From sequence record MZ189262.1: DNA of 64,000 nt; one strand, given 5' to 3'. Below are positions 7,097 through 41,406 of this stretch, piece after piece. The number at the start of each line of letters is the position of its first letter. Within the stretch, counting starts at the first letter, position 1. The notes under the pieces are model-generated. The model saw nothing but the letters and a program-made list of their open reading frames with translations. It made no database searches and was not told the origin of the DNA. Source of the DNA: Escherichia phage W143. The translations under genes were made by a program, and so were the position numbers.

Positions 7097-7793
<697 letters not shown>

Positions 7794-38138: not shown

Positions 38139-39704
38139 ATGACTATCAAAACTAAAGCTGAACTTTTGAACAAATGGAAGCCATTACTGGAAGGTGAAGG
38201 TTTACCGGAAATTGCTAATAGCAAACAAGCGATTATCGCTAAAATCTTTGAAAACCAGGAAAAAGATTTCCAGACAGCTCCAGAGTACAAAGACGAAAAA
38301 ATCGCTCAGGCGTTCGGTTCTTTCTTAACAGAAGCTGAAATCGGTGGTGACCACGGTTACAATGCTACTAACATCGCTGCAGGTCAGACTTCTGGCGCAG
38401 TAACTCAGATTGGCCCAGCTGTTATGGGTATGGTACGTCGTGCTATTCCTAACCTGATTGCTTTCGATATTTGCGGTGTTCAGCCGATGAATAGCCCGAC
38501 CGGTCAGGTATTCGCACTGCGCGCAGTATATGGTAAAGACCCAATCGCTTCCGGCGCTAAAGAAGCATTCCACCCAATGTATGGTCCAGATGCAATGTTC
38601 TCTGGTCAGGGTGCTGCTAAGAAATTCGCTGCTTTGAAAGCAAGTGATACTCTTGAAGTTGGAACTATTTACACCCACTTCTTCCAGGACACTGGTACTG
38701 TGTATCTGCAAGCTACAGAAGCTAAACAAATTGATTCCGCTGCATCTGACGCAGACAAATTAGATGCTGAAATTAAGAAACAAATGGAAGCTGGTGTACT
38801 GGTAGAAATCGCTGAAGGTATGGCTACTTCTATCGCTGAACTTCAGGAAAGTTTCAACGGTTCTACCGATAACCCATGGAATGAAATGGGCTTCCGTATC
38901 GATAAACAAGTTATCGAAGCTAAATCTCGCCAGCTGAAAGCTGCTTACTCTATCGAATTAGCACAAGACCTCCGCGCTGTTCACGGTATGGATGCTGATG
39001 CTGAACTGTCTGGTATTCTGGCTACCGAAATCATGCTGGAAATTAACCGTGAAGTTGTTGATTGGATTAACTACTCAGCTCAGGTTGGTAAATCTGGTAT
39101 GACCCTGACTCCGGGTTCTAAAGCTGGTGTATTTGACTTCCAGGATCCGATTGATATTCGTGGTGCTCGCTGGGCGGGTGAATCCTTTAAAGCTCTGCTG
39201 TTCCAGATTGACAAAGAAGCAGTTGAAATTGCTCGTCAGACCGGTCGTGGTGAAGGTAACTTCATTATCGCTTCCCGTAACGTAGTTAACGTTCTGGCTT
39301 CAGTTGATACTGGCATTTCTTATGCTGCACAGGGTCTGGCTACCGGCTTTAACACTGATACTACCAAGTCAGTATTTGCTGGTGTTCTGGGTGGTAAATA
39401 CCGTGTATATATCGACCAGTATGCTAAACAGGATTATTTCACCGTAGGTTATAAAGGTCCGAACGAAATGGATGCAGGTATTTACTATGCTCCATATGTA
39501 GCTCTGACTCCGCTGCGTGGTTCCGATCCGAAGAACTTCCAACCAGTAATGGGATTCAAAACTCGTTACGGTATCGGTATCAACCCATTTGCAGAATCCG
39601 CTGCTCAGGCTCCGGCTTCTCGCATCCAGAGCGGTATGCCTTCTATTCTGAATAGCCTTGGTAAAAACGCTTACTTCCGCCGTGTATATGTTAAAGGTAT
39701 CTAA
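38139..39704 (+). CDS. 23: major capsid protein gp23
   Basis: 521 aa; highly biased codon usage typical of the most abundant virion protein. Confidence 0.95.
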   Translation: MTIKTKAELLNKWKPLLEGEGLPEIANSKQAIIAKIFENQEKDFQTAPEYKDEKIAQAFGSFLTEAEIGGDHGYNATNIAAGQTSGAVTQIGPAVMGMVRRAIPNLIAFDICGVQPMNSPTGQVFALRAVYGKDPIASGAKEAFHPMYGPDAMFSGQGAAKKFAALKASDTLEVGTIYTHFFQDTGTVYLQATEAKQIDSAASDADKLDAEIKKQMEAGVLVEIAEGMATSIAELQESFNGSTDNPWNEMGFRIDKQVIEAKSRQLKAAYSIELAQDLRAVHGMDADAELSGILATEIMLEINREVVDWINYSAQVGKSGMTLTPGSKAGVFDFQDPIDIRGARWAGESFKALLFQIDKEAVEIARQTGRGEGNFIIASRNVVNVLASVDTGISYAAQGLATGFNTDTTKSVFAGVLGGKYRVYIDQYAKQDYFTVGYKGPNEMDAGIYYAPYVALTPLRGSDPKNFQPVMGFKTRYGIGINPFAESAAQAPASRIQSGMPSILNSLGKNAYFRRVYVKGI

Positions 39705-39720
39705 GATATAACCTTATTAT

Positions 39721-39738
39721 GGGAGACTTCGGTCTCCC
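39721..39738. terminator. UUCG-tetraloop hairpin (gggagac-ttcg-gtctccc) between convergent gene 23 and the antisense ORF
   Basis: perfect 7-bp stem; can serve both strands. Confidence 0.55.
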
Positions 39739-39753
39739 ATTCTTGTTTCTATA

Positions 39754-40020
39754 CTACGCAATCTTAACTCGACGGTTGATGATGTCACGGAAGTCAATAC
39801 GATTTTCTTGGATTTTCAGCCAGTTACCAGATTTGTCTTTGGTATGGGTAGAATATTCACCGTTCCACCAGAAGTCAGTAGCATAATCCATGGTTTCATA
39901 TTTCTTAACTAGGGCATTCACTGCATTACCGTTAGGATTGGAACCATATTTTTCTACCAGGGCTTTGATGTCTTTATCAAGAGCGGACAGAGTAGTACGA
40001 ATAAAGTTTAACTTGTTCAT
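39754..40020 (-). CDS. hypothetical early protein antisense to the capsid genes; start placed at ATG 40020
   Basis: 88 aa from MNKLNFIRTTLSALDKD...; GGAG SD before the second ATG; own early promoter. Confidence 0.5.
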   Translation of the reverse strand: MNKLNFIRTTLSALDKDIKALVEKYGSNPNGNAVNALVKKYETMDYATDFWWNGEYSTHTKDKSGNWLKIQENRIDFRDIINRRVKIA

Positions 40021-40050
40021 TTTTAATCTCCTCATGTTTTTGATAGGTCT

Positions 40051-40080
40051 ATAGTAACATGTGATAACCTTGCTGTAAAC
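40051..40080 (-). promoter_or_regulatory. T4 early-type promoter (-35 GTTTAC, 17-nt spacer, -10 TACTAT) driving the antisense ORF
   Basis: minus strand GTTTACagcaaggttatcacatgtTACTATagacctatcaa; same cassette as in the ip locus. Confidence 0.55.
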
Positions 40081-40086
40081 AACTTT

Positions 40087-40094
40087 TATAAATA
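40087..40094 (+). promoter_or_regulatory. late promoter TATAAATA for gene 24
   Basis: exact TATAAATA ~28 nt upstream of ATG 40123. Confidence 0.6.
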
Positions 40095-40122
40095 AACATA
40101 TACTCTCAACAAGGAAAGCGCA

Positions 40123-41406
40123 ATGGCTAAAATCAACGAACTTCTGCGCGAATCAACCACAACGAATAGCAACTCAATCGGTCGCCCAAATCTCGTTGCT
40201 TTGACTCGCGCTACCACTAAATTAATATATTCTGACATTGTAGCAACGCAAAGAACTAATCAACCTGTTGCTGCTTTTTATGGTATCAAATACCTTAACC
40301 CAGATAATGAATTTACATTTAAAACTGGTGCTACTTACGCTGGCGAAGCTGGATATGTAGACCGAGAACAAATCACAGAATTAACAGAAGAGTCTAAATT
40401 AACTCTCAATAAAGGCGATTTATTCAAATATAATAATATCGTTTATAAAGTATTAGAAGATACACCATTTGCTACCATTGAAGAAAGCGATTTAGAACTA
40501 GCTCTTCAGATTGCAATTGTTCTTTTAAAGGTTCGTCTATTTTCTGATGCAGCGTCAACGAGCAAATTTGAAAGCTCTGATAGCGAAATTGCTGATGCTA
40601 GATTCCAGATTAATAAATGGCAAACCGCAGTTAAATCTCGTAAACTTAAAACAGGTCTCACGGTTGAATTAGCACAAGATTTAGAAGCAAATGGATTCGA
40701 TGCTCCTAATTTCTTGGAAGATTTGCTTGCAACTGAAATGGCGGATGAAATCAATAAAGATATTCTACAGTCTTTGATTACAGTGTCAAAACGCTATAAA
40801 GTTACAGGAATTACTGATACCGGATTCATTGATTTGAGTTATGCATCTGCACCTGAAGCCGGTCGTTCATTATACCGAATGGTATGTGAAATGGTTTCGC
40901 ATATCCAAAAAGAATCAACTTATACAGCAACGTTCTGTGTTGCTTCAGCTCGTGCCGCTGCGATTCTTGCTGCATCAGGTTGGTTAAAACATAAACCAGA
41001 AGATGATAAATATCTTTCACAAAATGCCTATGGGTTCTTAGCTAATGGTTTACCGCTTTATTGTGATACTAACAGCCCATTAGATTATGTAATCGTTGGC
41101 GTGGTAGAAAATATTGGCGAAAAAGAAATTGTCGGATCAATTTTCTATGCTCCGTATACAGAAGGTCTTGACTTAGATGACCCTGAACATGTAGGTGCAT
41201 TTAAAGTTGTAGTTGATCCAGAAAGTTTGCAGCCATCTATCGGTTTATTGGTTAGATATGCTTTATCTGCAAATCCTTACACTGTAGCAAAAGACGAAAA
41301 AGAAGCAAGAATAATTGATGGTGGAGACATGGATAAAATGGCGGGTCGTTCAGATTTGTCTGTTTTATTAGGTGTTAAGCTACCAAAAATTATCGTTGAT
41401 GAATAA
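40123..41406 (+). CDS. 24: head vertex protein gp24
   Basis: 427 aa; paralogue of gp23. Confidence 0.9.
   Translation: MAKINELLRESTTTNSNSIGRPNLVALTRATTKLIYSDIVATQRTNQPVAAFYGIKYLNPDNEFTFKTGATYAGEAGYVDREQITELTEESKLTLNKGDLFKYNNIVYKVLEDTPFATIEESDLELALQIAIVLLKVRLFSDAASTSKFESSDSEIADARFQINKWQTAVKSRKLKTGLTVELAQDLEANGFDAPNFLEDLLATEMADEINKDILQSLITVSKRYKVTGITDTGFIDLSYASAPEAGRSLYRMVCEMVSHIQKESTYTATFCVASARAAAILAASGWLKHKPEDDKYLSQNAYGFLANGLPLYCDTNSPLDYVIVGVVENIGEKEIVGSIFYAPYTEGLDLDDPEHVGAFKVVVDPESLQPSIGLLVRYALSANPYTVAKDEKEARIIDGGDMDKMAGRSDLSVLLGVKLPKIIVDE

Follow-up and report, generated by a model that had tools for sequence, protein, structure and literature searches.

Which gene lies antisense between the major capsid gene 23 and the vertex gene 24 of Escherichia phage W143, where did it come from, and what might its product do? 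The stretch of DNA analyzed here, referred to as the window, comprises 64,000 nucleotides of sequence record MZ189262.1. Gene 23 (major capsid protein, 521 aa; 38139-39704, plus strand) forms the left flank of the locus and gene 24 (capsid vertex protein, 427 aa; 40123-41406, plus strand) the right flank. Both are of T4 type and were identified from the annotation of phage vB_EcoM-G28 (G28), the gene 23 product having 96% amino acid identity to T4 gp23. The intergenic gap between them, at 39705-40122, is 418 bp long. A sequence-only reading of the locus had proposed that an orphan gene of 88 codons occupies the minus strand of this gap in the place where T4 carries the GIY-YIG endonuclease gene segD, with an early promoter and a Shine-Dalgarno sequence of its own and with the gene 23 terminator and the gene 24 late promoter on either side. 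The ORF and all four of these elements are present where they were claimed, and the T4 record shows gene 23, segD on the minus strand, and gene 24 in this order. The word orphan did not survive comparison with other phages.

The ORF occupies 39754-40020 on the minus strand including its stop codon, from an ATG at 40020 to a TAG at 39756-39754, and its product reads MNKLNF(IRTT)...RRVKIA. A longer version of 93 aa could begin at an in-frame ATG at 40035. Since that ATG overlaps the Shine-Dalgarno sequence, the start at 40020 and a length of 88 aa are likelier, and the 88-aa form is the one annotated in related genomes. The Shine-Dalgarno sequence GAGGAG (40033-40028, minus strand) lies 7 nt 5' of the ATG and is kept in the JS98, JK45 and JS09 alleles. 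A consensus promoter scan detected an early-type sigma-70 promoter at 40079-40051 on the minus strand, composed of a -35 hexamer TTTACA (40079-40074), a 17-nt spacer, and a -10 hexamer TACTAT (40056-40051) preceded by a TG extension, with the AT-rich stretch TTTATTTATAAAAG upstream of it at about 40080-40100. The arrangement GTTTACA-17-TACTAT with TG has the features of the GTTTAC-type early promoters of T4, namely (G)TTTAC(A), a 17-nt spacer, a -10 element TAnnnT and AT-rich upstream sequence.

The late promoter of gene 24, TATAAATA, was located in the sequence at 40087-40094 on the plus strand, 28 nt before the gene 24 ATG. The late and early promoters stand back-to-back, and the former overlaps the AT-rich stretch upstream of the latter. 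At the other end of the gap, the intrinsic terminator of gene 23 (39719-39750, plus strand), recovered by a terminator scan and also annotated in G28, is a JS98-type hairpin with a UUCG loop and a T-rich tail; the hairpin ATGGGAGAC-TTCG-GTCTCCCAT itself covers 39719-39740 and is followed by the T-rich run. Folded on the minus strand, the same hairpin lies 3' of the ORF, where the 9-bp stem is kept and is followed by AUAAUAAGG, without a U-run. As a terminator of the ORF it thus appears weak, and some antisense read-through into gene 23 is plausible as a side effect. A search of the gap against Rfam returned only a sub-threshold match to PhrS on the terminator hairpin (best E 0.17, with a score that falls well short of the gathering threshold).

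Comparison of alleles indicates that the reading frame is maintained for its protein. By the Nei-Gojobori method, dN/dS was 0.06 against the JS98 allele (dS 0.16), 0.10-0.12 against the alleles of JK45 and LF82-5 (dS 0.41-0.51), and 0.14 against that of VR26, in a set of alleles spanning dS 0.16-2.1. Values of 0.06-0.14 show clear purifying selection on the 88-aa protein. The upstream region is conserved as well. Seven upstream regions were aligned, including that of T4 segD and those of alleles whose proteins are only 33-36% identical, and the -35 hexamer together with the adjoining TTATTTATAAA block was invariant in all of them. A -10-like hexamer (TACTAT, TATTAT or CATAAT) is found at the matching position, the TG extension is present in most alleles, and the Shine-Dalgarno sequence is kept while the spacer is free to vary; a functional promoter would be expected to leave such a pattern. 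Moreover, the block TTATTTATAAAAG is nearly invariant across all occupied slots. On this comparative evidence, the ORF is a real protein-coding gene and more than a chance reading frame. Judged from the type of its promoter, it is likely expressed early in infection, and early promoters are typical of novel ORFs in T4-like genomes (PMC1524935).

The gene is already known as an annotated hypothetical protein and a member of PHROG 6003. The product matches the profile of this family over its full length (E 6.1e-49, residues 1-88 against profile positions 1-88 of 90) and has 97.7% amino acid identity to orf173 (EpJS98_gp173) of phage JS98, which makes it an orthologue of that gene in the RB69ORF188c family. 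At the DNA level, 651 bp of the locus are 99.8% identical to G28, GEP001, EP01, KIT06 and others, and the KIT06 copy of the protein is 98.9% identical. In G28 the gene is annotated as G28_00177, 'similar to hypothetical protein EpJS98_gp173'. The remark of the sequence-only reading that the product resembles nothing familiar stands as regards function, but not as regards family. Its description as rich in Asn, Gly and Trp holds for Asn (10 of 88 residues) and Trp (three residues), but not for Gly (only 4 of 88).

Homologues were found by tblastn in 237 of 50,697 phage records, and the same 237 were recovered with the most distant cultured member as the query. They belong to the genera Dhakavirus, Gaprivervirus and Mosigvirus and to a small group of Tequatrovirus. 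Thirty-five records, including Dhakavirus (JS98, Bp7) and the G28 group, fall in the band of 95-99% identity; 50 records, including JS10 and phages with a Mosigvirus backbone such as LF82-x and F2, in that of 90-95%; 32 records, including Gaprivervirus (VR26), in that of 60-80%; and 119 records, including RB69-type Mosigvirus at about 36%, below 60%. The one remaining record is the Vequintavirinae phage ABPH49. The antisense position between genes 23 and 24 was found in every T4-like record or contig inspected (LF82-5, VR26, JS09, O157tp3 and JS98), and it also holds for metagenomic members at 57% and 28% identity. Three members were found outside the T4-like phages, that of ABPH49 among them; one non-T4-like member lies among a row of small ORFs on contig P0020, taken as rV5-like, and another adjoins siphovirus-type tail genes. 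When 1.84 billion representative proteins were searched exhaustively with a HMMER profile, only five full-length clusters matched. The long repeat proteins P0025 and P0026 from that search were rejected as artefacts whose scores sum many weak repeats, and P0023 as a 160-aa chimeric metagenome fragment. The family, as far as these searches delimit it, is small and restricted to phages.

The sequence-only reading had also called for a comparison of the 23-24 gap across T-even genomes. We surveyed the slot with a joined query of 800 nt of gene 23 and 800 nt of gene 24, so that the span of each hit gives the size of the gap, and found that it has four states: it can be empty, hold segD alone (as in T4) or the ORF alone, or hold both genes as an ORF-segD operon. 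In a sample taken at even spacing, 26 of the 28 Tequatrovirus-type rows have an empty slot, a gap of 83 bp with the terminator and the late promoter only; the exceptions are RB59 with segD and the G28 group with the ORF. Among about 502 records with at least 95% identity over the joined query, 53 carry T4-type segD and nine carry the ORF, which leaves about 87% empty. The Mosigvirus-type rows of the same sample carry either the ORF alone in its RB69-type allele (seven of nine) or the ORF in an operon with a SegD orthologue (two of nine). The segD-only state of T4 is thus a minority state. Since the slot is usually empty, the ORF is dispensable for the T4-type core. The view that a different gene sits in the slot of segD has to be recast: the slot is polymorphic, and its usual state in Tequatrovirus is empty, not segD.

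In the operons of JK45 and LF82-5, segD is placed exactly between the stop codon of the ORF and the terminator, with its ATG 5 nt past that stop, and the two genes are arranged alike in IME08, a Dhakavirus phage. The SegD orthologue of the operons is 58% identical to T4 SegD, and the endonuclease of JK45 matches TIGR01453. Edgell et al. (2010) considered the antisense position of T4 segD odd, and a segD-specific promoter could not be found (PMC2988022). The block upstream of T4 segD is homologous to that of the ORF, being TTTACA-17-TATTAT with the TG extension and back-to-back with TATAAATA, and the alignment suggests that a promoter for T4 segD does exist. Judging from the alignment, it is plausible that the segD-only state of T4 arose from the ORF-segD operon by a deletion that removed the ORF between its own start region and that of segD, both of which read TAAAA(T)ATG or nearly so.

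These comparisons refute two explanations. According to the first, the ORF would be a lineage-specific orphan, unrelated to anything, that has replaced segD in this phage. T4 does carry segD at the position and the ORF has no functional annotation, but the 237 homologue records, the PHROG 6003 assignment, the G28 annotation, the position conserved down to 28% identity and the empty rather than segD-bearing slot of most Tequatroviruses leave this reading hardly any probability. Still less probable is that the ORF is what remains of a decayed seg (GIY-YIG) homing endonuclease gene, an outcome that the sequence-only reading had itself named as fatal to its proposal. The slot, the orientation and the promoter block are indeed those of T4 segD. 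However, BLASTP against T4 SegD gave an E value of 0.22, the protein has no GIY-YIG match in Pfam, purifying selection on it is strong, and in JK45, LF82-x, PNJ-9 and IME08 an intact ORF lies beside an intact SegD orthologue.

The relationship to JS98 raises the question of how a Dhakavirus-type gene came to stand between T4-type capsid genes. Blocks of 100 nt over 39739-40139 are 94-98% identical to JS98 and 59-72% identical to T4, while the flanking gene 23 and gene 24 blocks are 85-100% identical to T4, except for a variable patch of gene 23 at 38639, and 53-94% identical to JS98. Informative sites are of Tequatrovirus type up to 39683 and from 40110 onward, and of JS98 type at 39706-40105. 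The switch points therefore fall at 39683-39706, in the conserved last codons of gene 23, and at 40105-40110, in the conserved ribosome-binding region of gene 24. By block identities and informative sites, a Dhakavirus (JS98)-type intergenic cassette at 39705-40105 is set in a T4-type backbone, and the transferred unit comprises both promoters, early and late, along with the ORF and the terminator hairpin. LF82-5 has gene 23 and gene 24 of Mosigvirus type with a Dhakavirus-type intergenic cassette, there with segD, and by the same kind of comparison it displays the pattern independently. The sequences thus indicate that the cassette has moved between genera as a precise intergenic unit, with the flanking capsid genes remaining lineage-specific.

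The product itself is a protein of 10.3 kDa with a pI of 9.4 and is hydrophilic (GRAVY -0.75); of 19 family members examined, 18 have a pI of 9.2-10.1. With the alignment of these 19 sequences as input, AlphaFold2 gave a model with a pLDDT of 93.8 and a pTM of 0.79, composed of a helix at residues 3-25, a second helix at 31-48, a beta hairpin at 52-61 and 67-71, and a third helix at 77-87. All residues invariant in the 19-sequence alignment are present, namely K3, F6, N30-G31-N32 at the turn into helix 2, and Q71; the outlier P0024 has H-G-N in place of N-G-N. The Trp pair is restricted to JS98-type alleles and is not conserved in the family.

Domain and structure searches gave nothing significant. 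The only Pfam hit of the window protein was DUF5380 at E 0.079, and the 19 members together gave scattered sub-threshold matches to DUF4859, Ca_bind_SSO6904 and EcoRI that vary from member to member and do not reach the curated cut-offs. NCBIfam gave no match for the family, and the anti-phage defence HMMs of PADLOC gave none for three family members. A profile search of the PDB hit only de novo designed helices at E values of at least 0.09, and Foldseek with the model of pLDDT 94 found nothing below E 1.5 in the PDB and only the ABPH49-type family member in BFVD. No match in sequence or fold was found to solved structures of counter-defence or host take-over proteins. HU/IHF and RelE/ParE were considered in view of the size, charge and helix-helix-strand order of the product, and neither Pfam nor the fold searches supported them. 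The fold is predicted with confidence and is without a match in the structure and family libraries searched.

We propose that the ORF is probably an intact and dispensable early accessory gene, carried on a JS98-like cassette of about 400 bp that takes up the entire gap, and that its product would bind a macromolecule of the host or of a competitor. The cassette was almost certainly acquired by recombination from a JS98-like (Dhakavirus) phage, with the conserved 3' end of gene 23 and the ribosome-binding region of gene 24 serving as junctions. Within the first minutes after infection, the sigma-70 RNA polymerase of the host, still unmodified, would start at TTTACA-17-TACTAT, and transcription would run leftward, antisense to the capsid genes. 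Translation from GAGGAG-N7-AUG would produce a basic, compact protein of 88 aa with the order helix-helix-beta-hairpin-helix and with the conserved N-G-N motif in the loop between helices 1 and 2. With no recognisable catalytic motifs, the protein may act stoichiometrically on its partner, in host take-over or in counter-defence. Identity and evolutionary origin are the near-certain parts of this explanation. The binder or anti-host role is more tentative and may well prove wrong, as it is an argument from class that draws on the size, charge and dispensability of the protein, its spread to unrelated virulent phages of enterobacteria, and the example of T-even accessory genes. A basic charge fits nucleic-acid binding equally well. 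A role in capsid assembly is unlikely because the same allele occurs beside three lineages of capsid genes and the relatives in other phages are not beside capsid genes.

Several other explanations accept the gene as real and differ in what it is for. One is that the ORF product is the first of a new structural class of early effectors, which might for instance inhibit a host defence or a competitor phage, and that its cassette would have spread as cargo of SegD-type endonucleases; we regard this as possible at best. If true, it would explain why the same Dhakavirus allele is found between capsid genes of Tequatrovirus type and of Mosigvirus type. A rather unlikely variant ties the gene to the homing endonuclease more directly. 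The ORF would be a resident gene with a SegD-type insertion in its 3' flank, co-conversion in the course of repair initiated by SegD would carry its Dhakavirus allele from genus to genus, and the protein might modulate the endonuclease or protect against it. The operons of JK45 and LF82-5, with segD between the ORF stop and the terminator, fit this, as does the position of T4 segD under the same promoter block. Mosigviruses that bear segD also carry the Dhakavirus-type ORF (about 90% identity) and not the resident RB69-type (about 36%), while their genes 23 and 24 stay of Mosigvirus type. In the literature, nucleases are documented at the boundaries of genetic exchange (PMC10448857), as is the mobilisation of neighbouring anti-defence loci by SegB (PMC13096335). 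Against it, segD is absent from most phages that carry the ORF (237 records with the ORF versus about 60 with a SegD of the 56-64% type), and the window and JS98 are among those without it. T4 SegD is also said not to home its own gene. Moreover, hitch-hiking would account for the spread of the ORF but not for the purifying selection on its protein.

Marginally less probable again is that the product is a small nucleic-acid-binding protein, such as an early regulator acting on host or phage DNA or RNA. The basic pI kept in the family and the compact helical domain with a beta hairpin in the model are in keeping with such a function. However, Pfam gave no match to HU/IHF, winged-helix, ribbon-helix-helix, RelE/ParE or other families of this kind, and the invariant residues are mainly Asn, Gly and Gln rather than Arg or Lys. 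It is improbable that the main product of the locus is RNA, an 'anti-late' transcript that would pass through the weak hairpin into antisense gene 23 and thereby slow or adjust the expression of the capsid genes. In its favour, T4 is a classic case of early antisense ('anti-late') RNAs, the minus-strand hairpin has no U-run, and the promoter block is kept even where segD stands downstream in place of the ORF. The low dN/dS and the conserved Shine-Dalgarno sequence and ATG, however, argue that the protein is what selection acts on. In addition, most Tequatroviruses manage without a promoter here, family members in other phages are not beside capsid genes, and Rfam gave no significant match. The dispensable early accessory gene remains our preferred explanation, and because the minus-strand terminator is weak its transcript may also act as an antisense RNA to gene 23.

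Among known genes, JS98 orf173 and G28_00177, both hypothetical proteins of PHROG 6003, agree with the ORF in length, slot, promoter and terminator. The cassette differs from that of JS98 in lying between T4-type instead of Dhakavirus-type capsid genes, and otherwise there is no difference of substance. The RB69ORF188c-type genes of Mosigvirus, such as JS09_0270, lie in the same slot and orientation behind the same promoter block, are of the same size (89 aa) and share N-G-N, K3, F6 and Q71, but their products have only 33-36% amino acid identity to the ORF product and lack the WW pair. The products annotated in RB69 itself, and in a few further phages, are all truncated (41-64 aa). T4 segD, a free-standing GIY-YIG homing endonuclease gene, has the slot, the antisense orientation and a homologous upstream block in common with the ORF, while its product is an unrelated nuclease of 223 aa.

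The closest parallel in kind is the set of small early accessory genes of T-even phages (Nolan et al. 2006; HIDEN-SEQ-type screens), with which the ORF shares an early promoter of its own, dispensability, patchy presence, horizontal exchange and the lack of known domains. The PHROG 6003 family differs from them in having no assigned phenotype or target. None of the HIDEN-SEQ phages T4, Bas37 and Bas54 has the gene, as judged from the text of the paper or by tblastn. The protein sequence was not found in the supplements of one accessory-gene screen, the main text of two screen papers does not mention the family, and literature searches on RB69ORF188c and on gene 23, gene 24 and segD of JS98 returned no paper on it.

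As a gene, the ORF belongs to the routine 'dark matter' of T-even phages and would not surprise a specialist on T4. What the present analysis adds is the four-state slot, the precise exchange of the cassette, the purifying selection on the protein, and a confidently predicted fold without a match in the libraries searched. The ORF is a reasonable and cheap candidate for deletion and expression screens on host range and counter-defence, and the 23-24 slot offers a natural system in which to ask if SegD-type endonucleases take adjacent genes along from one phage to another.

In JK45 (L010 1058-1987), LF82-5 (L002 3001-3930) and IME08, the small ORF, the 88-aa gene lying antisense in the gap between the major capsid gene 23 and the vertex gene 24, forms an operon with an orthologue of the GIY-YIG homing endonuclease gene segD. 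The product of this orthologue shares 58% identity with T4 SegD, and in all three phages the gene is inserted exactly between the stop codon of the small ORF and the gene 23 terminator. In LF82-5 the entire intergenic cassette is of the Dhakavirus type, and the flanking genes 23 and 24 are of the Mosigvirus type. In T4 itself (L007, NC_000866), a promoter-like block, TTTACA-17-TATTAT with a TG extension, is present on the minus strand 5' of segD (7234-7300). Alignment of the upstream regions shows that this block is homologous to the small-ORF promoter of other phages and is positioned back-to-back with the gene 24 late promoter. No segD-specific promoter was identifiable according to Edgell et al. 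2010 (PMC2988022).

Two tandem copies of gene 24 are found in Dhakavirus and Gaprivervirus, as well as in metagenomic contigs related to them (VR26, L003 330-2894; JS98, L008 335-2899; and the further loci L013, L015 and L016); the window, T4 and Mosigvirus possess one. The rnlB gene (RNA ligase 2), which adjoins gene 24, is annotated in two CDS pieces in JS09 (L004 586-1585), a split that could reflect a frameshift or a sequencing error. Within gene 23, block comparison with T4 revealed a divergent patch of roughly 100 nt (window 38620-38760, gp23 residues about 164-205) with 63% identity, against 91-100% in the remainder of the gene. The same patch is likewise 60-68% identical to JS98, VR26, JS09 and LF82-5, and in the protein alignment its substitutions are clustered (KFAALKASDTLEVGT...ATEAKQIDSAASDAD). 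This pattern suggests a small part of the capsid protein that is either mosaic or evolving fast.

Beyond the T4-like phages, the sole cultured source of a small-ORF homologue is Acinetobacter phage ABPH49 (L005 3001-3267, GTG start), where the neighbours are small ORFs without annotation. Acinetobacter is an unusual host label for a phage placed in Vequintavirinae. Three further database matches were not accepted as family members. The 160-aa product of a 701-nt ENA contig (P0023) matches residues 32-63 of the small ORF almost perfectly over 32 residues, but this segment is fused to an unrelated N-terminal part, and the product is probably an assembly chimera. The long repeat proteins P0025 and P0026 reach E values of 1e-11 to 1e-12 solely by the summing of weak repeat matches.

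In a few phages, the annotated small-ORF product is present only in truncated form, with 41 aa in RB69 (BFVD Q7Y4W1), 51 aa in phage mogra (P0021) and 64 aa in 310Ecol104PP (P0007), whose homologue was recovered by tblastn in two pieces. These truncated products suggest that the gene is occasionally frameshifted or decayed, which agrees with its being dispensable.
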